Below are positions 4,513-21,367 of a stretch of 21,382 bases of DNA, piece after piece. The stretch comes from a virus (Duplodnaviria; Heunggongvirae; Uroviricota; Caudoviricetes): IMG/VR virus record IMGVR_UViG_3300028833_000002; one strand, given 5' to 3'. Numbering within the stretch: position 1 is the stretch's first letter; every line of letters begins with the position of its first letter. The translations under genes and the position numbers were made by a program. Under the pieces are notes generated by a model. The model saw nothing but the letters and a program-made list of their open reading frames with translations, was not told the origin of the DNA and made no database searches.

Positions 4513-4563
4513 ATATATAGAAAGTTAAGAGAGAGATAAAAAATTAGAAAGGACGAATGAACT

Positions 4564-4821
4564 ATGAAAAACTACAGACCAAAGTCATGGAGCGCTCAGG
4601 CTCGCGAAATGTGCGACAGACAGATTGAATACATAAACTACGGACACTGCTTTATCGCTGATTCAATGAGAATGTTCAGAAACTCTTACCGCCACCCACT
4701 CATTGTTGGTAGAGCGGCAAAGAGATTTGGCAGAATGTTAAGAGCCGGCAAAATCAGAGAGAACAAGGAAGCATACATCAGACAGTATCCACTCGATGCT
4801 AAAGACAGGGGGCTTATCTAA
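4564..4821 (+). CDS. small basic hypothetical protein (85 aa)
   Basis: AAGGA RBS, Arg/Lys-rich, TAATG coupling to the next gene. Confidence 0.8.
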   Translation: MKNYRPKSWSAQAREMCDRQIEYINYGHCFIADSMRMFRNSYRHPLIVGRAAKRFGRMLRAGKIRENKEAYIRQYPLDAKDRGLI

Positions 4822-7710: not shown

Positions 7711-8034
7711 GTGGCACTATTCCCAAATCAGAAAACAATCCAAATTCGCCGCACTCTTCCTCACAAAAACTTCATGGCTATAGATAGAACAAACTGGATT
7801 ATCGCGGCGAAAAGATTAACCTATTCCGCTTTTAAACTATGGATGTTTTTGTGTTCTTATGGAACAAGAGATATGGCGATAGGCCCGGCATATATCAAAC
7901 AATGTATCGGCATTTCAGAAGCCAGTTATCGAGATGCCATGAAAGAACTCGAAAAATACGAATACATAACCCAAGTTCAAAAGAACACTTATCTCTTTAA
8001 TGAATTTGGCAGACCAATGGAGGAAGATGAATGA
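7711..8034 (+). CDS. winged helix-turn-helix protein, paralog of 1175-1717
   Basis: GTG start after GAGGTG. LTYSAFKLWMFL...ISEASYRDAMKELEKYEYI...NTYLFN aligns by eye with the 1175 protein. Confidence 0.65.
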   Translation: MALFPNQKTIQIRRTLPHKNFMAIDRTNWIIAAKRLTYSAFKLWMFLCSYGTRDMAIGPAYIKQCIGISEASYRDAMKELEKYEYITQVQKNTYLFNEFGRPMEEDE

Positions 8035-9347
8035 TAGAACTTACAGAAAACGATAAACTTGAAGAACAGGAAGACTACAATACCCTCAATGAAAAGCAGA
8101 AACAGTTTTTCGATATGGCAATGAGCGGCAAGAATATGTTCATTACCGGTCCAGCCGGCACAGGAAAAACATTTCTCGTTAATCGCATAATCAAAGCATT
8201 TGAACGTCGCGGCAAAACCAGTATAGTTTGTGCAACTACTGGTGTTGCGGCAAGAAGTATAGGGGGGTTTACACTTCATCACCAGTTCCATCTCTCCGTA
8301 ACCGATGGCACAGCAACTCAGGACAATGATTGGTTAAAGGATGCTGATAGTCTTATCATTGATGAAGCCTCCATGATGGATTACCTTATCTTCAACACAA
8401 TCGGCAATGAAATTAAGGAGTTCAATCCAAACTGTCAGATTATTCTTATCGGTGATTTCTTTCAGTTACCACCTGTTGTAACTGAGGAAACAGTTAAAAT
8501 CGCTGACCATCGCGGCTATTCAGACCAGATTGACCGTAGTCAGTATCATTGCTTTCACTCGCACATTTGGAGGGATTTCAACTTCCAAACTTGTATCCTC
8601 ACACAGGCAATGAGACAGGACGACCAGGCATTTAGCACAGCACTCTACAATCTCAGCCGCAATACTCTTACAAACAATGACCTTGCTTATCTCTCACAAT
8701 CACAGAAAAACTCTCCAATGAAGGGTGCTATAATCCTCGCTTGTACAAATAAGGTTGTAAACGCTATCAATTCTCAGGAACTCGATAAAATAGATTCGCC
8801 GGAAAAAGTCTACAAAGCTCTCTATTGGGGCGAGTATGATAAAGAAATCCCAAAGATACTTAAACTGAAAATCGGCGCGAGAGTTATGCTCACAATTAAC
8901 AATCCAGCAGATGGCTACTGTAATGGCGACATGGGCAACATCACAGAAATGAATATTACGGGGGTTAGGGTTAAGTTAGATAGCGGTGAAACGGTAGATG
9001 TTCCTCAGTATGACTTTAAAACCCAAATTTTTGAGGACGGTGAAACTCAGACAATCGGGGGTATCAAACAGTTACCACTTAAACTCGCTTGGGCAATTAC
9101 AGTGCATAAGTCCCAGGGTCAGACTTTCGATAAGGTAAACTTCCTTTATGACAAAGGTTTCTTCGATGGCGCCAATGAAAACCGCACACTTCTTTACGTT
9201 GGTTTAAGCCGCGCAAGAAAAATTGAAAATCTTTATCTCAGAATTAAAGGCAATCTTCCACGTTTCAATAACGAAGCAATAGTAGACTTCTACAATGGCA
9301 ATTACAAGACCTATACAAGCCGCTTTGACGGTATGGTAGGTTTCTAA
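8031..9347 (+). CDS. Pif1/RecD-like superfamily 1B DNA helicase (438 aa)
   Basis: SF1B motifs in order: GPAGTGKT, IIDEASM, GDFFQLPPV, LTQAMRQ, N..V..IN, WAITVHKSQGQT, YVGLSRA; also KIGARVML and CNGDMG typical of the Pif1 family. Confidence 0.9.
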   Translation: MIELTENDKLEEQEDYNTLNEKQKQFFDMAMSGKNMFITGPAGTGKTFLVNRIIKAFERRGKTSIVCATTGVAARSIGGFTLHHQFHLSVTDGTATQDNDWLKDADSLIIDEASMMDYLIFNTIGNEIKEFNPNCQIILIGDFFQLPPVVTEETVKIADHRGYSDQIDRSQYHCFHSHIWRDFNFQTCILTQAMRQDDQAFSTALYNLSRNTLTNNDLAYLSQSQKNSPMKGAIILACTNKVVNAINSQELDKIDSPEKVYKALYWGEYDKEIPKILKLKIGARVMLTINNPADGYCNGDMGNITEMNITGVRVKLDSGETVDVPQYDFKTQIFEDGETQTIGGIKQLPLKLAWAITVHKSQGQTFDKVNFLYDKGFFDGANENRTLLYVGLSRARKIENLYLRIKGNLPRFNNEAIVDFYNGNYKTYTSRFDGMVGF

Positions 9348-9353
9348 AATCGC

Positions 9354-9382
9354 GGCTGGGTGTTAGCACCTGGCCATTTTTT
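9354..9382 (+). terminator. intrinsic terminator of the helicase operon
   Basis: GGCTGGGTG-TTAG-CACCTGGCC followed by ATTTTTT. Confidence 0.75.
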
Positions 9383-9471
9383 GCGTTATAGGAGTAGAGC
9401 ATGGGTTTCGCGGCAAGATTTTTAGGATTTAATTCCGCGGCGAAATAACAGAGAAAGTAAAATAGCACATA

Positions 9472-9506
9472 CTCTAATACTATGAGCGAAGCGAATAGTA
9501 TTAGAG
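9472..9506. repeat. perfect 12-bp inverted repeat with a GCGAAGC-containing loop
   Basis: CTCTAATACTAT (9472-9483) / ATAGTATTAGAG (9495-9506). Confidence 0.85.
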
Positions 9507-9544
9507 GGGAAGCAGCGTGCGAGCGCGTAGCGCGAGTTAGCTGT

Positions 9545-10104
9545 ATATATTATATATAGTGGGGATTAACTTTTTTTGGAGTGAGAATGGAGGGGTAAGG
9601 GTAGTAGTATAATTATTATATATAATATAGTGGAGTTTAACTTTAACGGTAATGGTAGTAGAGTGGTAGGGTAGGGGTAGTAGTAATAATATAATTATAT
9701 TATATAGTGCAAGTTAACTTAATTGCGGTAATCGCGGCGAAAGGAGGAAGAAAAATCTAAACGGCGAAGCTGGAGGGGTAGGGGTAGGGTAATAAATATA
9801 TTATATTATATAGTGCAAGTTAACTTTAACAGTAGGGGAGAGTAGTAGGGGAAATAGGGGAGAAATGATAGGGGTAGGGTAGGGATAATATAATTATATA
9901 TATTAATAGTGCAACTTAACTTAGTTTGATAAGGGGAAAGAAAAAAAGAAGAAAAAAGGGGGAGGGTAAGTATATAATTATTATATATTATATAGTGGAG
10001 TTTAACTTTAACAGTAGAAGAGAAGAAAAAAGGGGGAAATAAAAGGGGAGAATGGGGGGGTGTAGGAGTAGTAATAATATATATTATATTGTGCAACTTA
10101 ACTT
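9545..10104 (+). repeat. 7 degenerate units of [G-tract][TA-rich][TAGTG-NNNN-TTAACTT], period about 71-105 bp
   Basis: Cores at about 9555, 9626, 9703, 9808, 9905, 9991, 10087; G/purine runs only on the + strand. Confidence 0.8.
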
Positions 10105-10388
10105 TCTCGCTAAAGCCATCTAACTCGTGCTTACCGTTCCAAACCGTTTTTTAGCGGTTTCGTCCGTTACCCTCCGTGGTGAAGTTTAAGTTTTTCTTAG
10201 TTCTTTGGGAATGGTTTTAGTTTGGTAAATTTTGCTAGCGCAGCCTAGCATAGCGTTAATGAAATTTCGCCGCGATTTTAGGGGAGTAGGTATTGTTTTC
10301 GCGGCGAAAAAGGGGTCGAGAAGAAAAGATTGCGTTCTCCCCTTTTAGGGGGATAGGGGGTCAAAAGGGGCGGAATTTACGCCCCAAG

Positions 10389-10421
10389 AAAACTAATCTT
10401 TTCGTCAGAAAAGTTAGTTTT
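10389..10421. other. inverted repeat
   Basis: AAAACTAA-T-CTTTTC-GTCA-GAAAAG-TTAGTTTT. Confidence 0.55.
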
Positions 10422-10443
10422 CGCCAATTCTTTTATTATATTA

Positions 10444-10610
10444 CAGTTGGTTTAAATTTTTACACCCAGTTGGTTTAAATTTTTACAGCAGATGGTTTAA
10501 ATTTTTACACCCAGTTGGTTTAAATTTTGACATTCGGGCGGGTTGTCAGTTTAAATTTTTACAACCAGTTGGTTTAAATTTTTACACCCAGATGGTTTAA
10601 ATTTTTACAC
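10444..10610 (+). repeat. iteron-like tandem array, 7 x 22-23 bp (CAG(T/A)TGGTTTAAATTTTTACACC)
   Basis: Four copies 10444-10534, a 12-bp interruption, then one partial and two full copies to 10610. Confidence 0.9.
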
Positions 10611-10693
10611 TCTTGCCCGGTATGAAAATTTTTGATTTTCTTTTACATTTTCTACATTATTAATGCCGATGGTCGCGGCAAGGAGATGATAAT

Positions 10694-11425
10694 ATGACCA
10701 AACGAAATATAAAAACCTTTGATGATACTCATAAGCCTGATATTACTAAAACTTAGCAGCTCGTTTATCACTATCTACTTAGTAAATCTGTGTTTGACCC
10801 TGATTTAAAAATTTACAAAGTATTTAAATCTGATATACCTCAAACAAAAATCGCGGCAGATTTAAAAATATCTAGACCTACCGTATCAACAGCTCTCAAA
10901 AAACTCGATGAAAAACACTACATCAGTGAAGTTGACCTAGATGGTTCCTTAACGCCGGGAAAGTGGTATGTAATTCATCCATATATGACGCCATATGTGG
11001 GGTTAGATATAGACCTCATTAAATTTCTTACTGTAATTGCTTCCTCTCTTAAAGAAGACCTTAAACATGTAATTTCTGTTTATTGTTTATTATGTAAGTT
11101 CTATGATGAAGCTCATAAAAATTATATGGTGCCTTATATTACTCCGTCATTGCTTGCAAAAGTTTATGAAAAGAACAGTAGTTATGGAAATATGACTCCT
11201 AAATATTACATTCTTCTCAGTATTTTTATTGGAACAGAATTATTAAATGGTGAATGGGAAGATTGCGTTATAAATAATAGCGGATTAACATGCAGAAAAT
11301 TTAAAATTGAAAAAATTTGTACTGTTTTGCCGCAAAATATTAAAGAAGTTTTAAAAGATGACATAGATGATGCTAAAACTCATCAAATGTTAGAACGAAT
11401 TCTCCAAGAAAATCCAGAAATGTAA
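10694..11425 (+). CDS. Rep-like winged helix-turn-helix protein (243 codons) with an in-frame TAG at codon 21; recoded gene or pseudogene
   Basis: AAGGAG RBS 8 nt before ATG 10694, in frame with the track ORF 10790-11425, whose GTG lacks an RBS. TAG at 10754-10756. HTH segment QTKIAADLKISRPTVSTALKKLDEKHYI. Confidence 0.65.
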
Positions 11426-12701: not shown

Positions 12702-12733
12702 TCCTTCCGGTTTTAGGGACTTATTACCTGTCC
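12702..12733 (-). ncRNA. leader stem-loop/pseudoknot + SD, copy A
   Basis: GGAC-AGGUAAUAA-GUCC-CU-AAAACC-GGAAGGA. Confidence 0.75.
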
Positions 12734-12757
12734 TTTGTTGTTTTATCTTATGTATAT

Positions 12758-12786
12758 ATTATAACATAGAATAGGGCAGTTGTCAA
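12758..12786 (-). promoter_or_regulatory. consensus sigma-A promoter
   Basis: TTGACA-17-TATAAT, TGn extension. Confidence 0.95.
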
Positions 12787-12828
12787 GTGTTTTTCTAAAA
12801 ATTTTTCGCTGCCAAAATCTACCAAATC

Positions 12829-12836
12829 GCCCGGGC
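12829..12836. promoter_or_regulatory. GCCCGGGC core of the periodic site
   Basis: Starts 43 bp from the -35 hexamer. Confidence 0.7.
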
Positions 12837-12865
12837 GAAAAGGCAGAATTTACCATTTAAGGGGT

Positions 12866-12890
12866 AAAATAAATCGCCCCGAAGGGCGAA
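12866..12890 (-). terminator. terminator, cassette 2
   Basis: TCGCCC-TTCG-GGGCGA then TTTATTTT. Confidence 0.85.
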
Positions 12891-12893
12891 GTA

Positions 12894-13304
12894 TTAGTCG
12901 TTGTATTTTTCCGTAATATGGCTTGCATACTTATCATAGTAAATGTTGTCATATATTTCCATATCATACTGTAATAACCGTATTTTATCTTGTAACTCTT
13001 TTATCTCATTATGGCACAAATCCGCCGCATCTTCATAATGTAACACTTCTTCATACCTTTTGACTATTATTCTGTCTTCTGCTACTTCATCGGTATTAAA
13101 AATATCAAAAACGCCAGTTAAAACTTCTTTAAAGACATCAAATTCAGTTTCAGTACATTTTATAATTTCAAAGGGGTAACCGTCATCAATGGCATTGATA
13201 AGATTTTCATAGTTTTTGTCCTGTATAAAATCCTCACAGTTGTCAGAAAGTGTTAATTCATAACAATCTCTTTCATGGTACATTCTGTATACAATTACTA
13301 TCAT
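12894..13304 (-). CDS. acidic hypothetical protein (136 aa)
   Basis: GGGAGG RBS favours ATG at 13304 over the track start at 13319. Confidence 0.8.
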   Translation of the reverse strand: MIVIVYRMYHERDCYELTLSDNCEDFIQDKNYENLINAIDDGYPFEIIKCTETEFDVFKEVLTGVFDIFNTDEVAEDRIIVKRYEEVLHYEDAADLCHNEIKELQDKIRLLQYDMEIYDNIYYDKYASHITEKYND

Positions 13305-13306
13305 AG

Positions 13307-13726
13307 TTAATCCTCCCAAATTAAATCAATGTGAAAACTGTTAATATTTACTGTCATGTCCACCATTTCCCAGTGTCTATTGTACGCTTCTTGTAATATA
13401 TTGGTTAAAAAATTATCAACAAATGTATTTGCCGCATCATACATTTCTCTTGAAAGTATACGATTTCTGTACAAAAGAAGTATATCACTTAAATGAAAGT
13501 CTCCGATTGTTTCATCTGTGTCATAAATAGTTTCTGCATGAAGGGTAAAACAATAATCTGTCAAATTATACCAAGTTGTTATAATGTCTTCGGCAGAACT
13601 TTGGTCTAACATATAATTTACCATTAATCTTAATGAACTTGTTTCAAAGTCATTACACTTAAAGCAACACTTTTTCATATTGGTTTTGTTCCCTTTTTTC
13701 ATATTGGCTTTGTCCTTTTTTTTCAT
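13307..13726 (-). CDS. hypothetical protein (139 aa) with a triplicated start region
   Basis: First gene of the cassette; in-frame ATGs at 13726, 13702, 13678 from a 24-bp tandem repeat. Confidence 0.8.
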   Translation of the reverse strand: MKKKDKANMKKGNKTNMKKCCFKCNDFETSSLRLMVNYMLDQSSAEDIITTWYNLTDYCFTLHAETIYDTDETIGDFHLSDILLLYRNRILSREMYDAANTFVDNFLTNILQEAYNRHWEMVDMTVNINSFHIDLIWED

Positions 13727-13734
13727 ATTGGTTA

Positions 13735-13764
13735 TCCTTTCCGGTTTTAGAGTCTTTCCTGACT
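13735..13764 (-). ncRNA. leader stem-loop/pseudoknot + SD, copy B
   Basis: AGUC-AGGAAA-GACU-CU-AAAACC-GGAAAGGA. Confidence 0.7.
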
Positions 13765-13778
13765 TATCTTATGTATAT

Positions 13779-13807
13779 ATTATAACATATTCCGCCGCGA
13801 TTGTCAA
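13779..13807 (-). promoter_or_regulatory. consensus sigma-A promoter
   Basis: TTGACA-17-TATAAT; spacer contains ATCGCGGCGGAA. Confidence 0.95.
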
Positions 13808-13849
13808 GTAGTTTTGAAGAAAAATTTTCGCGGCAATAAATGGTAAAAT

Positions 13850-13857
13850 GCCCGGGC
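13850..13857. promoter_or_regulatory. GCCCGGGC core of the periodic site
   Basis: 43 bp from -35. Confidence 0.7.
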
Positions 13858-13891
13858 GAAAAGGAAAAATGTGGTAATGGCATAATAAATG

Positions 13892-13915
13892 AAAACCGCC
13901 CAATAAATGGGCGGC
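13892..13915 (-). terminator. terminator, cassette 3
   Basis: CCGCCCA-TTTAT-TGGGCGG-TTTT. Confidence 0.85.
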
Positions 13916-13919
13916 GTGT

Positions 13920-14384
13920 TTACTTCAACCATTTTGCTATATATTCGCTTGTATAACCACTACGGATAGGGGGATTAGATAAATCAGTTAAAAAACCGCT
14001 ACCCTTATTTATTTTAATATGTATACCATATAAACTTTTTGCTTTTTCTTTAGGTTTAAGTTCAACATAGTTAGTTCTATTTTTATCTTGATTTAGTTTA
14101 TCTATCTCTGTATTCTTTACATAGAAATAAAAAGGTAAATCCGTTTTGTCCTCTCTTTTAGTATGGAATACACATTTTGTATAATGCGTATTAAACCAAA
14201 GGAGTTGACATTTTCGATAGAATTTGACGATAGGACGAATGAAAATGAACACAATAAGCGTCCAAACACCGCATAAAGCGTATTGTATTTTTTCATTATC
14301 ATATAAGTTCGCAAGAGAAACGATAAAAATAATAAGCTGATAAGCAATAATTGTGATGATTATAGTTAAAATAATAGTTGTCAT
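13920..14384 (-). CDS. membrane protein, two N-terminal TM helices (154 aa)
   Basis: AAGGA RBS; hydrophobic segments near aa 3-26 and 35-52, basic C-terminal domain. Confidence 0.8.
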   Translation of the reverse strand: MTTIILTIIITIIAYQLIIFIVSLANLYDNEKIQYALCGVWTLIVFIFIRPIVKFYRKCQLLWFNTHYTKCVFHTKREDKTDLPFYFYVKNTEIDKLNQDKNRTNYVELKPKEKAKSLYGIHIKINKGSGFLTDLSNPPIRSGYTSEYIAKWLK

Positions 14385-14386
14385 AA

Positions 14387-14593
14387 TTAATCCTTCTTTG
14401 ATGTTGTCTTAAAGAAACTGCCAATGATTGAAAGTACAATCGCCCATAGTGCCGCCTGTTTCCAAGTCCATGTCGCAATTACACCTAACTTACAAAGTGC
14501 CCACAGTCCAAATCCTACAAGAAGAATTGAAAAACCATAACAAATTGCCATAATAGCAACAACAGCGATAAATGTTAATAAAACTTTTTTCAT
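14387..14593 (-). CDS. small membrane protein (68 aa)
   Basis: Almost entirely hydrophobic; first gene of the cassette. Confidence 0.85.
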   Translation of the reverse strand: MKKVLLTFIAVVAIMAICYGFSILLVGFGLWALCKLGVIATWTWKQAALWAIVLSIIGSFFKTTSKKD

Positions 14594-14602
14594 AATAGAA
14601 AA

Positions 14603-14636
14603 TCCTTTCCGGTTTTAACGACTTATAACCTGTCGT
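14603..14636 (-). ncRNA. leader stem-loop/pseudoknot + SD, copy C
   Basis: ACGAC-AGGUUAUAA-GUCGU-U-AAAACC-GGAAAGGA. Confidence 0.75.
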
Positions 14637-14659
14637 GTTTTGTTTTATCTTATGTATAT

Positions 14660-14688
14660 ATTATAGCACAGTTTAAGGCGCTTGTCAA
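14660..14688 (-). promoter_or_regulatory. consensus sigma-A promoter
   Basis: TTGACA-17-TATAAT. Confidence 0.95.
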
Positions 14689-14729
14689 GTGTTTTTAAAA
14701 ATTTTTTCGCCGCCAAAAACTGCCAAAAC

Positions 14730-14737
14730 GCCCGGGC
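14730..14737. promoter_or_regulatory. GCCCGGGC core of the periodic site
   Basis: 42 bp from -35. Confidence 0.7.
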
Positions 14738-14772
14738 ATTCTGCCAAAATTTACCAATTATGGCATATAAAG

Positions 14773-14796
14773 AAACCGCCCTCTTTCGAGAGCGGC
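14773..14796 (-). terminator. terminator, cassette 4
   Basis: GCCGCTCTC-GAAA-GAGGGCGGT-TT; identical 24-mer at 19151 and 20309. Confidence 0.85.
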
Positions 14797-14801
14797 GAAA
14801 T

Positions 14802-15119
14802 TTACCAGTCTGACCTATTGTCCCGTATATATTGACTTATATAATATAAAAGATAAGGCATATTACAATCTTTACTATTAACTGTAAAATTGTCACTTCC
14901 TGCCCAGTCCGGACCTTTTACATCCACTATGTCATTGTAAATATCCTCCTCTTTATCAAAATCAAACATACCAATATTTCTCAGAATGGTATTTTCTTCC
15001 TCTAACTTCTCTATTCGCTTTTCTAACTGGATTATTTTGGAGAACAGTGCGGCAAGTACCGCATCTGTTTCCATTTTTTTACCATCCTTGTCATAAAATC
15101 CACTTTCCCACAATTTCAT
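14802..15119 (-). CDS. hypothetical protein with a short coiled coil (105 aa)
   Basis: GAGGT RBS; segment KIIQLEKRIEKLEEENTIL. Confidence 0.8.
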   Translation of the reverse strand: MKLWESGFYDKDGKKMETDAVLAALFSKIIQLEKRIEKLEEENTILRNIGMFDFDKEEDIYNDIVDVKGPDWAGSDNFTVNSKDCNMPYLLYYISQYIRDNRSDW

Positions 15120-15129
15120 TTTTCTTACC

Positions 15130-15573
15130 TCACATTCTTAACACGGCATTTAAGATGTCAAAGATTTCCTTTTCGGAGTAAGCACCTTTTCCCCATTCTT
15201 CCCTAATTTCCTTATTATCATCAAAAAGGATACCTTTACCAAGGCTGTGCTTTGGCGTGCCGTATGGTACAATACAAATCTCATCCCATTCCACAGATGG
15301 AAGATGTTTCCTAAGCCACTGTAATTTGGCTTCCTTTGTGCGCTTGTCAAATTCCGGTGTACTTTCCTTTGAGCACCATGAAACGATTTTCAGAGTAAAG
15401 TCTAATTCCTTCTGTAATTTGTTGAGAAGTTTGGCAAGCCTTGACAAGTTAAGTCGTGCCTTAGCATCCTTGTATGGTCTTACGGAATAATTTCTCAAAT
15501 CTTCCAACCAACCTTCAACTTCATAGAAGTTATTTAAAGTTCCGTCCATGTCAAATACTATTTCTTTTTCCAT
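15130..15573 (-). CDS. HAD-superfamily phosphatase, 5'(3')-deoxyribonucleotidase-like (147 aa)
   Basis: Motif I IVFDMDGT, motif II IVSW, K..WL..HLP and motif IV ILFDDN. Confidence 0.8.
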   Translation of the reverse strand: MEKEIVFDMDGTLNNFYEVEGWLEDLRNYSVRPYKDAKARLNLSRLAKLLNKLQKELDFTLKIVSWCSKESTPEFDKRTKEAKLQWLRKHLPSVEWDEICIVPYGTPKHSLGKGILFDDNKEIREEWGKGAYSEKEIFDILNAVLRM

Positions 15574-15587
15574 AATTTAGTCCTTTC

Positions 15588-15650
15588 TTAATCAATAAAC
15601 ATTAAAATAACTGCAAAGAGAGTTAAACCTATAAGCATCAATGCGGTCAT
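15588..15650 (-). CDS. 20-aa hydrophobic peptide MTALMLIGLTLFAVILMFID (below the ORF-track cutoff)
   Basis: GAGGTG RBS directly after the cassette promoter; TAA followed by the RBS of the HAD gene. Confidence 0.65.
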   Translation of the reverse strand: MTALMLIGLTLFAVILMFID

Positions 15651-15675
15651 TTAAACACCTCTTTTCTATGTTTCT

Positions 15676-15704
15676 ATTATAACATATTTATAGGCGGTTG
15701 TCAA
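15676..15704 (-). promoter_or_regulatory. consensus sigma-A promoter (cassette without the structured leader)
   Basis: TTGACA-17-TATAAT. Confidence 0.95.
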
Positions 15705-15744
15705 TAGTTTTTAAAAATTTTTTATTTCCAGTTCCTACCAAAAT

Positions 15745-15752
15745 GCCCGGGC
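15745..15752. promoter_or_regulatory. GCCCGGGC core of the periodic site
   Basis: 41 bp from -35. Confidence 0.7.
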
Positions 15753-15781
15753 ATTCTGTCAAAATTTTCCAGTTATACCAT

Positions 15782-15820
15782 AAAAATGGGGCGGCAACCC
15801 TTTTCCAAGAGTTACCGCCC
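15782..15820 (-). terminator. terminator, cassette 5
   Basis: GGGCGGTAACTCTT-GGAA-AAGGGTTGCCGCCC then CATTTTT. Confidence 0.8.
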
Positions 15821-15826
15821 TTACCA

Positions 15827-16552
15827 TTAAAATGGAAGCCATCTTTCGTATCCAGTTTCTTCCACAAATTTTTGAAATGTTTTCCAAGCACAAATACAAT
15901 TCCATACTTGTTTTTTACCAGATTTTAACGCCCATAGCAAAATTTCATACTCTATCATAACATCACTTAAACCTGTATGTTCTTCTTCAAAATCAGCATA
16001 ACTTTCACCCTTTAAATATCTATAGACTATCTCGGCACTATAACGATAATTACCTTTTTCTGTCAGATAACCATGTCTATCACAGAACTGTAAATATTTC
16101 GGGTCAAGTAGTCTACTATGAACAACCGCACTCATAATGTCACGTATTTCCAATTCTAACATTTCATACCTTGCGCCTAAAAGACGGGATAAAGCGGAAT
16201 TGTCAAAAGCTACATTATAAGCATACAGTTTTTTGATTTTGTATTTCTGAATATCACTTGTAAATAATATCCAAAAACTTTCAATACTTATGCACTTGTA
16301 CTTCCTGTTTTTAGCACTATTCTCATAGTCTGTTAAAATGTCTTTAGTGTTTTTTAAGTGCATTTCCTTACATAAGCCAGTTTCTAAAGAATTTATCAGA
16401 TTTTGCCACACCGCATAAGGTAGCGCAATTGACCTCTTTTGGTAAATATTGCCGGCATTATCTGCTACAATATAACCAATATTGTAGGGTAGGCAAGTGG
16501 AATTTCCTTCCACGTCTAACACTAAAAACTTTTCCTTTGGACGACCTCTCAT
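15827..16552 (-). CDS. DEDDh (DnaQ-like) 3'-5' exonuclease (241 aa)
   Basis: ExoI LVLDVEG, ExoII AYNVAFD, ExoIII EEHTGLSDV. Confidence 0.85.
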   Translation of the reverse strand: MRGRPKEKFLVLDVEGNSTCLPYNIGYIVADNAGNIYQKRSIALPYAVWQNLINSLETGLCKEMHLKNTKDILTDYENSAKNRKYKCISIESFWILFTSDIQKYKIKKLYAYNVAFDNSALSRLLGARYEMLELEIRDIMSAVVHSRLLDPKYLQFCDRHGYLTEKGNYRYSAEIVYRYLKGESYADFEEEHTGLSDVMIEYEILLWALKSGKKQVWNCICAWKTFQKFVEETGYERWLPF

Positions 16553-16563
16553 TTTTTGGTAAT

Positions 16564-16596
16564 TCCTTTCCGGTTTTAACGACTTATGACCTGTCG
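16564..16596 (-). ncRNA. leader stem-loop/pseudoknot + SD, copy D
   Basis: CGAC-AGGUCAUAA-GUCG-UU-AAAACC-GGAAAGGA. Confidence 0.75.
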
Positions 16597-16611
16597 ATTT
16601 ATTATGTTATT

Positions 16612-16640
16612 ATTATATCACATTTGCGGTTGTTTGTCAA
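16612..16640 (-). promoter_or_regulatory. consensus sigma-A promoter
   Basis: TTGACA-17-TATAAT. Confidence 0.95.
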
Positions 16641-16700
16641 GTGTTTTTAAAAAATTTTTTCGCGGCGAAATATGGTAGCGCTGGAAAATGCTGGAAAGTC

Positions 16701-16708
16701 GCCCGGGC
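16701..16708. promoter_or_regulatory. GCCCGGGC core of the periodic site
   Basis: 61 bp from -35. Confidence 0.7.
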
Positions 16709-16740
16709 ATTTTGCCAAAATTTTCCAGTTTTGGATAAAA

Positions 16741-16773
16741 AATAAAAGAGGGCTGAACCGAAGTTCAGTCCTC
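16741..16773 (-). terminator. terminator, cassette 6
   Basis: GAGGACTGAAC-TTCG-GTTCAGCCCTC-TTTTATT. Confidence 0.85.
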
Positions 16774-16779
16774 GCTGGA

Positions 16780-17196
16780 TTATTCTGCCTTATTTTCCGC
16801 CTTTTCCTGTTCTCTTTTTGCCTTGTCTTTTTCTGCCTTTTCTGCTGTCTTTTTCTTCTTTTCCTCTTTTTCCTTTAATGTGTTTTTATACTTCTTTTCT
16901 TCCTCCCATCTATTATATTTTTCAAATTTTCTTTTTTCCGTTCTGTAGTCCTTATACTTGCATAAAGTTGGAGATATTACCGCACAACGTTCAACCCTCT
17001 TACCAGTGTCTTCCAGTTCTACCTCTCCAATGGCAACGGCAACCTCACTGGCACCTACAATGGAAACATTTTCCTCTCCGTATGCTTCAATCATAGCCTT
17101 GACGATAACATCAAAAAGGGTTGCTCTAAAGATGTTATCCATTTTCTGACTTTTTACTTCTTTTTCCTTTAAACTTACAAATTCTGCCTGTTCCAT
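16780..17196 (-). CDS. hypothetical protein with a Lys/Glu-rich C-terminal helix (138 aa)
   Basis: Sole gene of the cassette; GGAAGGA RBS. Confidence 0.85.
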   Translation of the reverse strand: MEQAEFVSLKEKEVKSQKMDNIFRATLFDVIVKAMIEAYGEENVSIVGASEVAVAIGEVELEDTGKRVERCAVISPTLCKYKDYRTEKRKFEKYNRWEEEKKYKNTLKEKEEKKKKTAEKAEKDKAKREQEKAENKAE

Positions 17197-17203
17197 AATC
17201 TTT

Positions 17204-17236
17204 TCCTTCCGGTTTTAACGTCTTATAACCTGACAT
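17204..17236 (-). ncRNA. leader stem-loop/pseudoknot + SD, copy E
   Basis: AUGUC-AGGUUAUAA-GACGU-U-AAAACC-GGAAGGA. Confidence 0.75.
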
Positions 17237-17287
17237 AAATTGATAGTATGGTTTTTAGGTGTTTTCTTCCCTTCACCTTATGTTAAT

Positions 17288-17316
17288 ATTATAGCACATC
17301 TTTTCGGTTTTGTCAA
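17288..17316 (-). promoter_or_regulatory. consensus sigma-A promoter
   Basis: TTGACA-17-TATAAT. Confidence 0.95.
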
Positions 17317-17377
17317 TAGTTTTAGAAAAATTTTTTAAAAAGTTTTTTATGGTAGAATTGGAAAAATCTGGAAAAAC

Positions 17378-17385
17378 GCCCGGGC
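17378..17385. promoter_or_regulatory. GCCCGGGC core of the periodic site
   Basis: 62 bp from -35. Confidence 0.7.
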
Positions 17386-17419
17386 AAAAAGGTAAAAATT
17401 TCCAGTAACATGGTATAAG

Positions 17420-17440
17420 AAAACCGCCCCGAAGGGCGGC
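17420..17440 (-). terminator. terminator, cassette 7
   Basis: GCCGCCC-TTCG-GGGCGGT-TTT. Confidence 0.85.
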
Positions 17441-17445
17441 ATAGA

Positions 17446-17652
17446 TTAATCATCGTATAAATTAAGTGCTTCAATACTTGCGACATCACAATTGTCATCA
17501 AGATACGTATTTAAGTCAATTTCTGTATTTCCTGTATACGGTTCACCTGTTAAATCTGCGATTGTTGACAAAACGTCTTCAAGTGCGGAGGAATATTCGG
17601 TATACGCACATATTGCACAACCCATACTATGCACTACATATATTTCTTTCAT
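17446..17652 (-). CDS. small acidic protein (68 aa)
   Basis: ATGA coupling with the upstream gene; about 14 D/E versus 1 K. Confidence 0.75.
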   Translation of the reverse strand: MKEIYVVHSMGCAICAYTEYSSALEDVLSTIADLTGEPYTGNTEIDLNTYLDDNCDVASIEALNLYDD

Positions 17653-18044
17653 TTGTTATACCCCTTTTCTTTAAGAAACTCAATACATTTTTCCGTCCAA
17701 TTAACCATAAGTTCTGCTTGTTCTAAGTAATCTGTTATACGCACTACGTGACCGTCTTCACGAGCAATAAACCATGAATTTTTCCATGGAACCTCCAAAC
17801 ATCTTGCTAAAATGCCATAATTTACATCAGTAAAAGCCTCATGAAAGTATCGAACCATGTAATCTTTTTCCTTTTCTGAAAGTCCCATTACTTGGAAGGG
17901 ATAACCACATTCGGCTATTAAACTTATTACTTCGCTTACTTCATCATCTCTTTCCCCTTCAATTATTTCAAATTCCGGAACTTTGTATTCAATTATCTTA
18001 AAATTTAAACTTATTGCATCATTTTTACAAACCTTAATATACAT
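17649..18044 (-). CDS. hypothetical protein (131 aa)
   Basis: GGAGGT RBS, TGA stop. Confidence 0.8.
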   Translation of the reverse strand: MYIKVCKNDAISLNFKIIEYKVPEFEIIEGERDDEVSEVISLIAECGYPFQVMGLSEKEKDYMVRYFHEAFTDVNYGILARCLEVPWKNSWFIAREDGHVVRITDYLEQAELMVNWTEKCIEFLKEKGYNK

Positions 18045-18045
18045 A

Positions 18046-18258
18046 TTATACCTCCTTTACAAACAAAGCTATGTTTAATGTCAAGAAAATTCCATTAATG
18101 ATAGCTCCTACCAATGCCTTATGTCTTATACTATCAAGAAGACCAGCACTTGACGACACTATGAAACAAGGTGCTGCCCAATTACTTCCAGCATAGCATA
18201 ATCCTGCCGCGATAGCACAGCAGAATATCATAAATACTTCAATATCTCTTATCTTCAT
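18046..18258 (-). CDS. small membrane protein (70 aa)
   Basis: Two to three hydrophobic segments; first gene of the cassette. Confidence 0.8.
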   Translation of the reverse strand: MKIRDIEVFMIFCCAIAAGLCYAGSNWAAPCFIVSSSAGLLDSIRHKALVGAIINGIFLTLNIALFVKEV

Positions 18259-18267
18259 GGTAAAAAG

Positions 18268-18296
18268 TCCTTCCGGTTTTAGAGTCTTTCCTGACT
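18268..18296 (-). ncRNA. leader stem-loop/pseudoknot + SD, copy F
   Basis: AGUC-AGGAAA-GACU-CU-AAAACC-GGAAGGA; 36 nt identical to copy B. Confidence 0.7.
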
Positions 18297-18310
18297 TATC
18301 TTATGTTTAT

Positions 18311-18339
18311 ATTATATCATATTTGCGATGAGTTGTCAA
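18311..18339 (-). promoter_or_regulatory. consensus sigma-A promoter
   Basis: TTGACA-17-TATAAT. Confidence 0.95.
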
Positions 18340-18379
18340 GTGTTTTTAAAAAATTTTTATTGGGAATTTGTGGTAAAAT

Positions 18380-18387
18380 GCCCGGGC
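18380..18387. promoter_or_regulatory. GCCCGGGC core of the periodic site
   Basis: 41 bp from -35. Confidence 0.7.
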
Positions 18388-18416
18388 AGTTTGGAAGATT
18401 TTACCAGTAATAGGAC

Positions 18417-18443
18417 AAAAAAGAAACCACCCCGAAGGGTGGC
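18417..18443 (-). terminator. terminator, cassette 8
   Basis: GCCACCC-TTCG-GGGTGGT-TTCTTTT. Confidence 0.85.
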
Positions 18444-18448
18444 ATAAG

Positions 18449-18985
18449 TTACCAATTGATATATAATGGATAACAAGGACGCAACATAGAGTTATAAATT
18501 AATATACCTTTTTTAATTTCAGCATTAAAACCATGATTTTGTAAATAAAGTTCAACATCTTTTACACAATATTCAATTGGAAGGTCATAAGTAGTTTCAC
18601 GATGACCACATTTAGCATCTAAAACAATCACACGTTCTATGTATTTAAGTTCCTTTGATATTCCTTTACGTCGTCTAAGTTCCTCTTTATCTTCCTTTAA
18701 TTGCTTTTTGTATTCTCCTTTGTTAATTACCCTTTGTGCTTTTTCAAGCGTAGACAGTTTTCTCGGTTTTGTTGAGAAATCATAACTGATACCAATATCT
18801 ATCCACACTACCATTATTACAAAAAAGCGAGTTATAAATATAAAAAATAAGGGAGTGAATAAATCTGAGGTGCCTAAAAGGCGAGATAACATTAAAATGC
18901 TAAAAATAGTAAAAGCAATATTCATTATGTGTATTATCATACTCCATAAATTAAAAATGTTTAAATTTCTTTCCTTTTCTGACAT
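18449..18985 (-). CDS. membrane protein, two N-terminal TM helices plus a basic coiled coil (178 aa)
   Basis: Hydrophobic aa about 10-35 and 43-66; sole gene of the cassette. Confidence 0.85.
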   Translation of the reverse strand: MSEKERNLNIFNLWSMIIHIMNIAFTIFSILMLSRLLGTSDLFTPLFFIFITRFFVIMVVWIDIGISYDFSTKPRKLSTLEKAQRVINKGEYKKQLKEDKEELRRRKGISKELKYIERVIVLDAKCGHRETTYDLPIEYCVKDVELYLQNHGFNAEIKKGILIYNSMLRPCYPLYINW

Positions 18986-18993
18986 ATAGTTTA

Positions 18994-19025
18994 TCCTTCC
19001 GGTTTTATAGAGTTGTAACCTCTCT
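18994..19025 (-). ncRNA. leader stem-loop/pseudoknot + SD, copy G
   Basis: AGAG-AGGUUACAA-CUCU-AU-AAAACC-GGAAGGA. Confidence 0.75.
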
Positions 19026-19037
19026 TTCTATATTCTT

Positions 19038-19066
19038 ATTATATCATATTTCGCCGCGATTGTCAA
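19038..19066 (-). promoter_or_regulatory. consensus sigma-A promoter
   Basis: TTGACA-17-TATAAT; spacer contains ATCGCGGCGAAA. Confidence 0.95.
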
Positions 19067-19107
19067 CACCTTTTTCAAAAAAATTTTTTACCAATTCCTA
19101 CCAAATT

Positions 19108-19115
19108 GCCCGGGC
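19108..19115. promoter_or_regulatory. GCCCGGGC core of the periodic site
   Basis: 42 bp from -35. Confidence 0.7.
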
Positions 19116-19148
19116 GTTTCGCCAAAATTTACCATTTCTACCATAAAC

Positions 19149-19174
19149 AAAAACCGCCCTCTTTCGAGAGCGGC
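19149..19174 (-). terminator. terminator, cassette 9
   Basis: GCCGCTCTC-GAAA-GAGGGCGGT-TTTT. Confidence 0.85.
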
Positions 19175-19180
19175 AAATTA

Positions 19181-19543
19181 TTACTTTACGATGTATTTAT
19201 TCGGAGTACCCTTCTGAATGTCAACTATATCGGCATTCTGTAAGTTTCTCATAATCGCTGTAAACTTTGACGAGTTCATTTTAAAGTCATATTCCTTTTC
19301 AAGTTCACCGATGACTGTTGCCTGTTTCTTCCATATTTCGTCCATGGTATAAATCAGACCTTTGTTTAAACCCGCTACCATTTTCTTACCAATTTCTGTG
19401 TTCTGTTCTCTCTTTTCTGCGGAATTTTTTGCCGACCTTGCGTTTTTACTGTCAACACTGGCAAGAAGTGCCTTTGCTTTTTCTGTAATTTCGTCGCTAA
19501 GATTTGCGGCAATAACCGCATTATAAAATTCTCTCTGTGTCAT
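19181..19543 (-). CDS. small protein with a probable C-terminal winged helix (120 aa), distant paralog of 20358 and 20946
   Basis: AAGGAGGG RBS; shared MT.R.FY..V.AN.....E...A N-terminus and NSSK...I.R....V...P..Y C-terminus. Confidence 0.8.
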   Translation of the reverse strand: MTQREFYNAVIAANLSDEITEKAKALLASVDSKNARSAKNSAEKREQNTEIGKKMVAGLNKGLIYTMDEIWKKQATVIGELEKEYDFKMNSSKFTAIMRNLQNADIVDIQKGTPNKYIVK

Positions 19544-19556
19544 GGTAAAACCCTCC

Positions 19557-20096
19557 TTATTCCTCTACTGTTACCGTATCTTCATAGAACTGACAAATTG
19601 TATCATCCGATAATCTAAGTATGATATACTTTTTACCGTCTTTTCTTCTATTATTAGTAGTGCCGATAAATTCATATCTGTTACAACCCCAACGAAAAAT
19701 GTCATGTGGTTTAAGTTCTGATAACTTTTTCTTTACTTCAAATTTAGGGCGCTCAACGTGGTTATACTTTGCCCAAAGTACACCTAAACCAGTAAAGACT
19801 TTAAACTTATCCTTTTTATTACAATAAGTTTCCACAAACTTACCGCTACGAGTATTAAGAAGACCTATTTTACGTGCCTTCGTGTTAACAGTAACCACAT
19901 AATTACCAAAGGTAAAGCTGTCGGCGCCTCCATAGGCATAGTCCTGGCGTTCAAAAGTTCTGTAAACTTCTGTCATTACATCATCAAAATCCATTGGAAA
20001 GCCTACCTGACCACTATTTACCGTTGCATTTGCCATAGCAATAATGAATGAATGCATCTGTGAGAGAGTCCATGTTGAGAATGTAAGATTTTCCAT
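19557..20096 (-). CDS. hypothetical phage protein (179 aa)
   Basis: First gene of the cassette; contains C...D.F....G motif (YCNKKDKFKVFTG), which recurs in phage hypotheticals from recall. Confidence 0.85.
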   Translation of the reverse strand: MENLTFSTWTLSQMHSFIIAMANATVNSGQVGFPMDFDDVMTEVYRTFERQDYAYGGADSFTFGNYVVTVNTKARKIGLLNTRSGKFVETYCNKKDKFKVFTGLGVLWAKYNHVERPKFEVKKKLSELKPHDIFRWGCNRYEFIGTTNNRRKDGKKYIILRLSDDTICQFYEDTVTVEE

Positions 20097-20104
20097 AGTT
20101 AAAT

Positions 20105-20136
20105 TCCTTTCCGGTTTTATAGACTTGAACCTGTCT
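20105..20136 (-). ncRNA. leader stem-loop/pseudoknot + SD, copy H
   Basis: AGAC-AGGUUCAA-GUCU-AU-AAAACC-GGAAAGGA. Confidence 0.75.
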
Positions 20137-20163
20137 GTTTGTTTTGTTTTATCTTATGTATAT

Positions 20164-20192
20164 ATTATAGCATAGAATAGGATACTTGTCAA
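20164..20192 (-). promoter_or_regulatory. consensus sigma-A promoter
   Basis: TTGACA-17-TATAAT. Confidence 0.95.
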
Positions 20193-20264
20193 TAGTTTTT
20201 TGAAAATTTTTTAAATTTATTTTTCGCGGCGAAATATGGTAAGATTGGTAAGAATTGGCAAAAT

Positions 20265-20272
20265 GCCCGGGC
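20265..20272. promoter_or_regulatory. GCCCGGGC core of the periodic site
   Basis: 73 bp from -35; TGGCAAAAT-GCCCGGGC-GTTTCGCCA imperfect palindrome. Confidence 0.7.
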
Positions 20273-20307
20273 GTTTCGCCAAAATTTTCCAATGGTGGAA
20301 ATAAAAG

Positions 20308-20332
20308 AAAACCGCCCTCTTTCGAGAGCGGC
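20308..20332 (-). terminator. terminator, cassette 10
   Basis: GCCGCTCTC-GAAA-GAGGGCGGT-TTT. Confidence 0.85.
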
Positions 20333-20357
20333 TTCCAGTTTCTGCCGTTTTTGGTTA

Positions 20358-20675
20358 TCACTTCTTGCTGTACTGCTTAGGTGACGAATCATCTGATACA
20401 ACCTTATCCTTTAAGATTTCACGGAGAACGTAACCAATCTTTGAGGAGTTGTACTTGCCTGAGAACATAGCAACGATGTCAGAGTTAAGGTACTTCTTTC
20501 CAGCCTCCATCTTGGCGAGGATTTCCTCGCCGAGAGCAACGTTAGCTTCACGCTTGCTGTCCTTTGCCTTATCTTCCTCCGCAAACTTAGCAAGGTACTT
20601 TCCAGCAATTTCCTTAGCTTCTGCTGAAATTGTTGCATTTGCGGCTACCTCTGAATAAAAAGCTCTAAGTGTCAT
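20358..20675 (-). CDS. small protein with a probable C-terminal winged helix (105 aa), tandem copy 1
   Basis: 98 of 105 aa identical to 20946-21263. Confidence 0.85.
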   Translation of the reverse strand: MTLRAFYSEVAANATISAEAKEIAGKYLAKFAEEDKAKDSKREANVALGEEILAKMEAGKKYLNSDIVAMFSGKYNSSKIGYVLREILKDKVVSDDSSPKQYSKK

Positions 20676-20684
20676 AATTAAAAT

Positions 20685-20716
20685 TCCTTTCCGTTTTATA
20701 GTCTTATAACGTGACT
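20685..20716 (-). ncRNA. leader stem-loop/pseudoknot + SD, copy I (compensatory variant)
   Basis: AGUC-ACGUUAUAA-GACU-AU-AAAAC-GGAAAGGA; loop CGUU matches tail AACG. Confidence 0.75.
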
Positions 20717-20763
20717 TAAATTGTTTTTAAGGGGTTTTCTTTATCCCCTCACCTTATGTATAT

Positions 20764-20792
20764 ATTATAACATAGATTTATTAGAATGTCAA
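20764..20792 (-). promoter_or_regulatory. consensus sigma-A promoter
   Basis: TTGACA-17-TATAAT. Confidence 0.95.
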
Positions 20793-20853
20793 TAGTTTTT
20801 CTAAAAAATTTAAAAAAGTTTTTTATGGAAGAATTGGAAAAATCTGGCAAAGT

Positions 20854-20861
20854 GCCCGGGC
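20854..20861. promoter_or_regulatory. GCCCGGGC core of the periodic site
   Basis: 62 bp from -35. Confidence 0.7.
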
Positions 20862-20896
20862 GAAATGGAAAAATTTTCCAGTAATGGGTTAAAATG

Positions 20897-20921
20897 AAAG
20901 CCGCCCTCTTTCGAGAGCGAC
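20897..20921 (-). terminator. terminator, cassette 11
   Basis: GTCGCTCTC-GAAA-GAGGGCGGC-TTT. Confidence 0.8.
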
Positions 20922-20945
20922 TTCCAAACTGTGGCAGTTTTGGTA

Positions 20946-21263
20946 TCACTTTAATGAATACTGCTTTGGACTGGAATCGTCTGCCACTACCTTATCCTTT
21001 AAGATTTCTCTAAGGACATAACCAATCTTGCTTGAATTGTACTTGCCTCCAAACATTGCCACAATGTCGGAGTTAAGATACTTCTTACCCTTTTCCATCT
21101 TGGCAATAATTTCCTCGCCAAGTGCCACATTTGCGGCTCTCTTGGAATCCTTTTCCTTATCTTCCTCCGCAAACTTAGCAAGGTACTTTCCAGCAATTTC
21201 CTTAGCTTCTGCTGAAATTGTTGCATTTGCGGCTACCTCTGAATAAAAAGCTCTAAGTGTCAT
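20946..21263 (-). CDS. small protein with a probable C-terminal winged helix (105 aa), tandem copy 2
   Basis: Paralog of 20358-20675, offset 588 bp. Confidence 0.85.
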   Translation of the reverse strand: MTLRAFYSEVAANATISAEAKEIAGKYLAKFAEEDKEKDSKRAANVALGEEIIAKMEKGKKYLNSDIVAMFGGKYNSSKIGYVLREILKDKVVADDSSPKQYSLK

Positions 21264-21273
21264 AATAATAACT

Positions 21274-21305
21274 TCCTTCCGGTTTTAACGTCTTGAACCT
21301 GACAT
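21274..21305 (-). ncRNA. leader stem-loop/pseudoknot + SD, copy J
   Basis: AUGUC-AGGUUCAA-GACGU-U-AAAACC-GGAAGGA. Confidence 0.75.
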
Positions 21306-21367
21306 TGATAATTTAAATTCTTACTCGGTGAATTTTCGTTTCCTGTTTCCCTTCACCTTATGTATAT

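Follow-up and report, generated by a model that had tools for sequence, protein, structure and literature searches.

The 21,382-nucleotide stretch of viral DNA analysed here (IMG/VR record IMGVR_UViG_3300028833_000002, Caudoviricetes; hereafter the window) carries what its pattern of base changes indicates to be an RNA pseudoknot of the H type, ~35 nt long, in the 5' leader of each promoter-proximal gene in ten early cassettes. Leader pseudoknots next to ribosome-binding sites are a known kind of element and this family is an uncatalogued one; comparison with relatives indicates that it is real, and it matches no Rfam family. The fold has two helices with compensatory changes in both, and dozens of copies are found across a clade of ~180-kb rumen and gut phages with putatively Firmicute hosts. 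We favour, at a probability of about 0.45, the reading that the pseudoknot is a cis-acting leader module which aids ribosome recruitment, survival of the mRNA 5' end, or both, with its helix capping the Shine-Dalgarno (SD) run.

Compensatory changes in both helices

The predicted fold comprises a hairpin stem of 4-5 bp and free sequence (P1), a first linker (L1) of A or AG, and a second helix (P2) of 3, sometimes 4, bp in which the first loop bases pair with the three bases directly 5' of the purine-rich SD run. The linkers L2 (3-5 nt) and L3 (4-6 nt) are both A-rich, L3 reading N-U-A-A-A and L2 ending in AA in 57/57 variants, and the unpaired bases (A10, the AA before P1', which is the 3' strand of P1, and UAAAA) are extremely conserved. 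All ten leaders (copies A to J, minus strand) are present where the sequence-only reading had placed them, and a search with the core pattern returns 16 overlapping matches over the ten sites against 0.87 expected by chance. The layout proposed there also holds, namely P1 of 4-5 bp, a loop starting A-(G/C)-G-U, P1', 1-2 nt, AAAAC(C), GGA(A)AGGA, 7-11 nt and ATG.

Relatives were sought with a two-gap DNA pattern in IMG/VR and in metagenome contigs, which yielded two IMG/VR contigs 75-85% identical to the window, several rumen metagenome contigs and the 180-kb contig described below. More distant contigs were reached through a large protein search for homologues of the 241-aa first-gene protein of copy D, together with contig look-ups. 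MAFFT misaligned the short-loop copies B and F, so model-based alignments were used, and a covariance model in which only P1 was specified, trained on eight window copies, found 108 copies in the window and its close relatives, representing 57 distinct sequences. The copies are tightly grouped: the two IMG/VR records hold 14 and 16, each set within one block of 12-13 kb, and in the near-complete 180-kb relative JAGCPW010000095.1 (L208/L209; 180,054 bp) all 15 lie within 12.4 kb on a single strand. This contig is binned with a yak-reticulum Eubacterium sp. metagenome-assembled genome (MAG), a weak hint at the host, and no copy is found elsewhere in that MAG. Gene content between the cassettes varies among relatives. 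A megablast of the region against INPHARED phages gave no match, a scan of IMG/VR with the 14-nt tail alone gave single chance matches only, and an IMG/VR scan with the distant-clade pattern gave mainly chance singles and one 157-kb phage with three matches. A locus search by the 241-aa protein returned two close relatives only.

Across the distinct sequences, pairs 6-22, 7-21, 8-20 and 9-19 of P1 are ~100% paired. Pair 6-22 occurs as AU, GC, CG, UG and UA, pair 8-20 as AU and UA in about equal number, and pair 9-19 as CG and GC. None of 500 shuffles reaches the P1 score, and no slid register comes near it. Leaders of orthologous proteins differ by double changes (GGAC/GUCC vs GAAC/GUUC; AGAC/GUCU vs CGAC/GUCG; GGAC vs GGUC; CGAC vs CGUC). 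Because pairing is kept across variants and orthologous leaders differ by compensatory changes, P1 is a real RNA helix. The P1 variants that had been listed for the window, with sequence varied and pairing kept, are correct, and the covariation in copies from related genomes is massive (57 distinct sequences).

The second helix had been claimed on the strength of copy I, in which loop ACGUU accompanies tail AAAACGG where other copies have AGGU with AAAACCGG; this double change is confirmed. In the window clade, loop GGU and tail ACC are invariant save for CGU with ACG in a single orthologous lineage, found ahead of the gene for a 105-aa protein, and the outer pair of P2 is GC in 53 cases, CG in 4 and unpaired in none. 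By itself this exchange would count as a single compensatory event. Across 80 distinct window-type sequences, this outer pair is GC in 57, CG in 4 and UG in 4, the remaining 11 being short-loop or weak matches. The loop:tail classes that support P2 are GGU:ACC, CGU:ACG, UGU:ACG, AUG:CAU, GUG:CAC, CUG:CAG and GAG:CUC. AUG:CAU, GUG:CAC and CUG:CAG come from a distant 181-kb contig with early leaders of like architecture, UGU:ACG, a wobble form of the copy I type, from two other distant contigs, and GAG:CUC from one, while GG:CC occurs in several. Among the 14 unambiguously aligned leaders of the 181-kb contig, the variable P2 pair is AU in 8, GC in 5 and CG in 1, so that 14/14 are paired; both of its P1 sub-families hold AUG:CAU and GUG:CAC, and at least two independent switches must therefore have occurred. 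All P2 counts are explicit pair counts on alignments; automatic parsing of loop-tail pairing is noisy, since the purine run can be taken to start at either of two adjacent bases. The several independent compensatory changes in relatives thus support the pseudoknot, and bear out the loop-tail helix. Conservation does not extend to a possible fourth pair, U14-A27.

A helix flush against the ribosome-binding run

Whatever the P2 class, a purine run of (A/G)GAAAGGA, GGAAGGA or AGAAAUGGAG begins immediately after the three tail bases. The run (G)GAA(A)GGA would be the complement of the 7-8 bases that terminate a Firmicute-type 16S rRNA, whose deduced tail is ...CCUCCUUUCU-3'. Many other promoter-proximal leaders of the same phages have instead a plain hairpin, unrelated in sequence, with its 3' end exactly at the purine run, and orthologous or neighbouring leaders swap the pseudoknot for short-loop or plain hairpins abutting the same run. 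We counted hairpins with stems of at least 5 bp at the 75 distinct AGAAAG...ATG sites in the clade, by the offset of their 3' end from the AGAAAG run. The 3' end falls exactly at the run (offset 0) at 20/75 sites, at +1 at 13 and at -1 at 9, with 0-5 sites at most other offsets; offsets -7 and -8, which correspond to the end of P1 in leaders of the pseudoknot type, account for 10 and 7. After shuffling of the upstream sequence, offset 0 is reached by a mean of 3.2 sites (sd 1.7). The conserved feature thus seems to be a helix set flush against an extended SD, the pseudoknot P2 being one way to supply it.

Another conserved hairpin is shared by three leaders of the contig MOYD01000024.1 (L206) at ~8300-10830, with a 7-bp stem and the loop ACCCUAAAAAC/A, ending exactly at AGAAAG. 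This contig also encodes BrxL and a DNA methylase.

Energetics and comparison with catalogued RNAs

The helices are weak when taken singly, with P1 alone at -0.8 to -3.8 kcal/mol and P2 at about -1 or weaker, and stability of the fold therefore probably depends on tertiary contacts or on a partner (ribosome, protein or ligand). Minimum-free-energy folds of whole leaders recover P1 in 5/10 copies, which is uninformative for so small a fold, and the predicted probability that the SD is unpaired is 0.39-0.83. A cmscan-type search of Rfam, the check named by the sequence-only reading, matches the pseudoknot to no known family at gathering thresholds, and at E up to 10 nothing is found on the 8.8 kb region, a 71-nt stretch or a 116-nt stretch. 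No Rfam model of the self-cleaving ribozymes (pistol, twister, hatchet, hammerhead) matches, and a full-text literature search on the tail sequence returned unrelated papers only.

Several other identities were considered and set aside. A CsrA site would have GGA in the loop and in the SD, and the loops here are GGU, CGU, AUG, GUG or CUG. A T-loop or tRNA mimic is not borne out, as only some copies have GGUUCAAGUC. Stems of 4-5 bp that lack a U-run do not fit an intrinsic terminator or attenuator, and they are too short for an RNase III site. A start at G12 from a second promoter lacks a -10-like hexamer upstream. A DNA operator is disfavoured because pairing rather than sequence is conserved, with strand and distance to the ATG fixed. 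A known parallel is the SAS motif of Cluster K mycobacteriophages, a conserved SD-overlapping motif 3-7 bp from the starts of 11-19 unrelated non-structural genes in one orientation, whose ESAS inverted repeats do not support RNA pairing and for which the authors favoured DNA-binding proteins (PMC3203893). The AAAAC(C)GGA(A)AGGA segment likewise overlaps the SD, 7-11 nt from the ATG in ten copies, but here the changes in both helices are compensatory and support RNA pairing.

RNA contig ends near the P1 loop

The RNA data are assembled contigs from two metatranscriptome runs of one sheep-gut sample, and such contigs cannot prove ends; the runs contain 67% and 40% of the region's sampled words. 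RNA contigs align cassette by cassette, and among the pieces listed none spans a promoter segment; DNA-run contigs cross some. The ends of the RNA contigs lie 12-27 nt downstream of the predicted starts, in or near the P1 loop. Illumina adapter follows directly after 12727 in copy A and after 20130 in copy H, both being G12 of the loop, which puts the junction between G11 and G12, and the copy G contig likewise ends at G12 (19019). Copies E and I have adapter-tagged ends in the loops of additional 5' hairpins (17265 and 20740), and in the eleventh cassette, which is without the pseudoknot, 15647 is the contig end in both runs. A G precedes most of these ends, matching the weak preference of RNase Y for cutting after G (PMC11780869). 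As a lead that is suggestive only, the leader may be trimmed or cut near the P1 loop in vivo.

Two further features of the RNA contigs were seen. The genes of the two 105-aa paralogues have by far the deepest contigs (180-450 vs 7-50 elsewhere). At window position 15930, inside the 3' part of the 241-aa open reading frame (ORF; 15827-16552), contigs of both runs stop, one of them with ~22 extra letters; the RNA may be processed at this point or have an early 3' end there.

A cis-acting module and its alternatives

In the reading that we favour, the pseudoknot would act in cis on its mRNA, leaving the SD run single-stranded. A compact helix set flush against the SD run could dock on the platform of the 30S subunit or stack on the SD:anti-SD duplex, and might also serve as a barrier to 5'-to-3' decay; the ribosome would then be the stabilising partner of the weak fold. 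Unrelated early ORFans would thereby gain stable 5' ends and be translated strongly whatever their context. This reading is preferred because of the rule that a helix abuts the SD, the interchangeability of pseudoknot and plain hairpin, the free SD and the confinement to promoter-proximal genes. RNase J1 is known to be blocked by ribosomes that initiate at strong SDs (PMC5737220), and Bacillus mRNAs are stabilised by 5' stem-loops together with ribosome binding, according to references given in PMC3997798. The Gram-positive stabilisers (the aprE stem-loop with its ribosome-binding site, the cryIIIA STAB-SD, the SP82 polypurine sequence and hbs) resemble the phage element in having a leader hairpin, a strong SD or both, which in their case protect from RNase J1 (PMC5737220 and references in PMC3997798), but they are located at the 5' end or close to it, do not form pseudoknots and make up no repeated family. 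The idea of a shared translational switch is weakened since neither helix sequesters the SD run and plain hairpins replace the pseudoknot, and the regulon that had been proposed with it stands for the promoter-proximal genes of one early-gene block, and falls in any wider sense. The leaders point to a simple design rule in these phages, in which a helix sits flush on an SD run whose partner is the extreme 3' terminus of 16S rRNA. Should the helix stack on the SD duplex or block RNase J1, the element would be a compact, portable module for expression and stability, and it would offer a testable idea for the uniform expression of unrelated phage early genes.

A number of points weigh against this reading. 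Some 15-20% of members have loops of 6-7 nt (AGGAAA, AGUCAA, AGACAA) in which at most two P2 pairs are possible, and one cassette works without a pseudoknot. On E. coli-based models, a hairpin flush against the SD is expected to lower standby binding. The stacking idea is a structural rationalisation, and both the host and its 16S 3' end are deduced from sequences. The pseudoknot is preceded by 9-60 nt in the primary transcript and is thus not 5'-terminal, so that a stabiliser role would need prior trimming. The RNA support consists of assembled contigs from a single sample, and the ends at 12-13 nt from the predicted start (copies C, D, F and G) may be ordinary 5' loss in library making. Finally, the extreme conservation of the unpaired bases named above would fit recognition by a trans-acting factor as well.

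Such a factor, whether a phage or host RNA-binding protein or a small RNA, would recognise the pseudoknot and its conserved unpaired bases as an operator, and would repress, activate or cleave all promoter-proximal early messages jointly, for example in early shut-off. Precedents are T4 RegA or RegB, the gene 32 operator and S15 on rpsO. We consider this unlikely, if by no means far-fetched. The single-stranded bases are invariant where the stem sequence is free, the weak helices need a partner for stability, the element is confined to one early block, and the sharp RNA ends after G in hairpin loops (G11^G12 in copies A and H; G^A in copy E and in the eleventh cassette) fit an endonuclease like RNase Y (PMC11780869). 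However, the in-clade swap with plain, unrelated hairpins at the same place would not be tolerated by a sequence-specific binder, loop and tail sequences vary between clades, and no candidate binder has been identified. The T4/RB69 gene 32 operator and E. coli rpsO (S15) are alike in that a leader pseudoknot adjoins the ribosome-binding site and acts on translation initiation, and in rpsO the hairpin loop also pairs with sequence adjoining the SD; those operators occur once, and the protein encoded downstream binds them in autoregulation, whereas the phage element occurs in 10-16 copies per genome upstream of different proteins.

A ligand-sensing riboswitch is very improbable. The phage element would be a new compact aptamer in the size class of preQ1-I, needing a host metabolite or other small partner to close P2 and so tuning translation of all early operons, and, if true, translation of the early host-takeover block would be gated on the physiological state of the cell. 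The preQ1-I riboswitch is itself an H-type pseudoknot with a ligand-pairing C just 5' of the P1 3' strand and an association with queuosine genes. Topology and dimensions agree with this very small fold (RF00522), with P1 of 4-5 bp, a loop-tail P2 of 3-4 bp, an A-rich L3 linker and a P2 that touches the ribosome-binding site; P2 is marginally stable, and the loop bases are strictly conserved. The resemblance stops there: no riboswitch covariance model, that of preQ1-I included, matches at gathering thresholds or, with the 71-nt query, at E up to 10, L2 ends in AA and lacks the conserved, ligand-contacting C, the SD run is free rather than sequestered, and the downstream genes, before which the element is repeated, are unrelated ORFans with no relation to queuosine. 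Moreover, members degrade to short-loop or plain hairpins.

It is hardly credible that the element has no RNA function and that the similarity arose from duplication or recombination of promoter-leader cassettes, as homology patches that shuffle ORFans. The cassettes taken whole do resemble the PeSL of T4-type phages, intergenic modules that recur beside small ORFans in a plastic part of the genome and combine a strong early promoter of the sigma-70 type with an AT-rich tract, an SD and a stem-loop (PMC2839356, PMC4122927). The PeSL stem-loop is a terminator or attenuator that lies over the promoter hexamers or between them, and it has been considered as a patch for DNA recombination. The variable gene content between cassettes would suit shuffling. 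The likeness holds for the cassette and not for the leader fold, which lies downstream of the -10 box, 20-35 nt before the ATG, has no U-run, and is transcribed and covarying. Homogenisation would conserve the stems, whereas these vary with pairing kept, and loop and tail covary across clades, and orientation and distance to the ATG are fixed.

The ten copies in the window

All copies are on the minus strand. Copy A (12702-12733; ATG 12693) has P1 GGAC/GUCC (12733-12730 with 12720-12717) and the loop AGGUAAUAA, and P2 would pair G11-G12-U13 (12728-12726) with ACC (12711-12709) directly before the SD GGAAGGA (12708-12702). Copies B (13735-13764; ATG 13726) and F (18268-18296; ATG 18258) both have P1 AGUC/GACU and the short, 6-nt loop AGGAAA, in which pairing is limited to GG:CC, as had been remarked; the SD of copy B is GGAAAGGA. 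The same SD follows copy C (14603-14636; ATG 14593), with P1 ACGAC/GUCGU, the loop AGGUUAUAA and P2 GGU(U):(A)ACC. Copy D (16564-16596) has P1 CGAC/GUCG, the loop AGGUCAUAA and P2 GGU:ACC, and precedes the gene of the 241-aa protein (phrog_20187; ATG 16552). Copy E (17204-17236; ATG 17196) has P1 AUGUC/GACGU, including one U.G pair, and shares the loop AGGUUAUAA. Copy G (18994-19025; ATG 18985) combines P1 AGAG/CUCU with the loop AGGUUACAA, and copy H (20105-20136; ATG 20096) P1 AGAC/GUCU with AGGUUCAA. The compensatory variant, copy I (20685-20716; ATG 20675), has P1 AGUC/GACU, the loop ACGUUAUAA and P2 CGU(U):(A)ACG, and copy J (21274-21305; ATG 21263) has P1 AUGUC/GACGU and the loop AGGUUCAA.

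Copies I and J thus precede two paralogous 105-aa proteins (20358-20675 and 20946-21263, minus strand) with differing P2 types, CGU:ACG and GGU:ACC; these paralogues have no Pfam or PHROG match. Copies E, I and J also have an additional hairpin at the predicted transcript start (17258-17281, 20730-20757 and ~21330-21365, minus strand), which starts with the polypurine, SD-like sequence AUAAGGUGA(A/G)GGG and is one that relatives also conserve. For copy E, Rfam GP20-b is matched weakly and below threshold (E 3.9; 11.5 bits vs a gathering score of 36.2).

Cassette layout and neighbouring features

The window encodes a Dda-like helicase at 8031-9347, and from ~12100 to its end every gene is on the minus strand, organised as short cassettes. 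Eleven early cassettes are present on this strand, of which 10/11 carry the leader pseudoknot, placed between the promoter and the first start codon. Each cassette has four upstream parts: an intrinsic terminator, a segment centred on GCCCGGGC, an AT tract and a perfect TTGACA-17-TGnTATAAT promoter. The terminators lie upstream of the promoters, and short ORFs lie between one promoter and the next. Scoring of sigma-A-type promoters gave ten with 12/12, one per cassette (minus strand, -35 start to -10 end): 12786-12758, 13807-13779, 14688-14660, 15704-15676, 16640-16612, 17316-17288, 18339-18311, 19066-19038, 20192-20164 and 20792-20764; a further one, for copy J, runs off the window end. Cassette-internal genes and plus-strand genes have ordinary GGAGG-type sites without the pseudoknot element.

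The eleventh cassette (15573-15704, minus strand) has the same promoter, and its leader ends ...UAAGAAAGGA followed by 7 nt and the ATG at 15573. A hydrophobic mini-ORF of 20 codons (ATG 15650) stands ahead of its NT5C-like gene, and the contig ends at 15647 lie just inside this mini-ORF.

Between 12800 and 20900, each intergenic segment has the GCCCGGGC core flanked by repeats of the type TGG(C/T/A)AAA, upstream of every promoter, and copies of a TCGCSGCGA palindrome are found beside or within some of the promoters. On the plus strand, the leaders at 1795-1836 and 4523-4564 start with AGUUAAGAGAGAG and end with AGAAAGGA, and are like leader types of the distant relatives L201 and L207.

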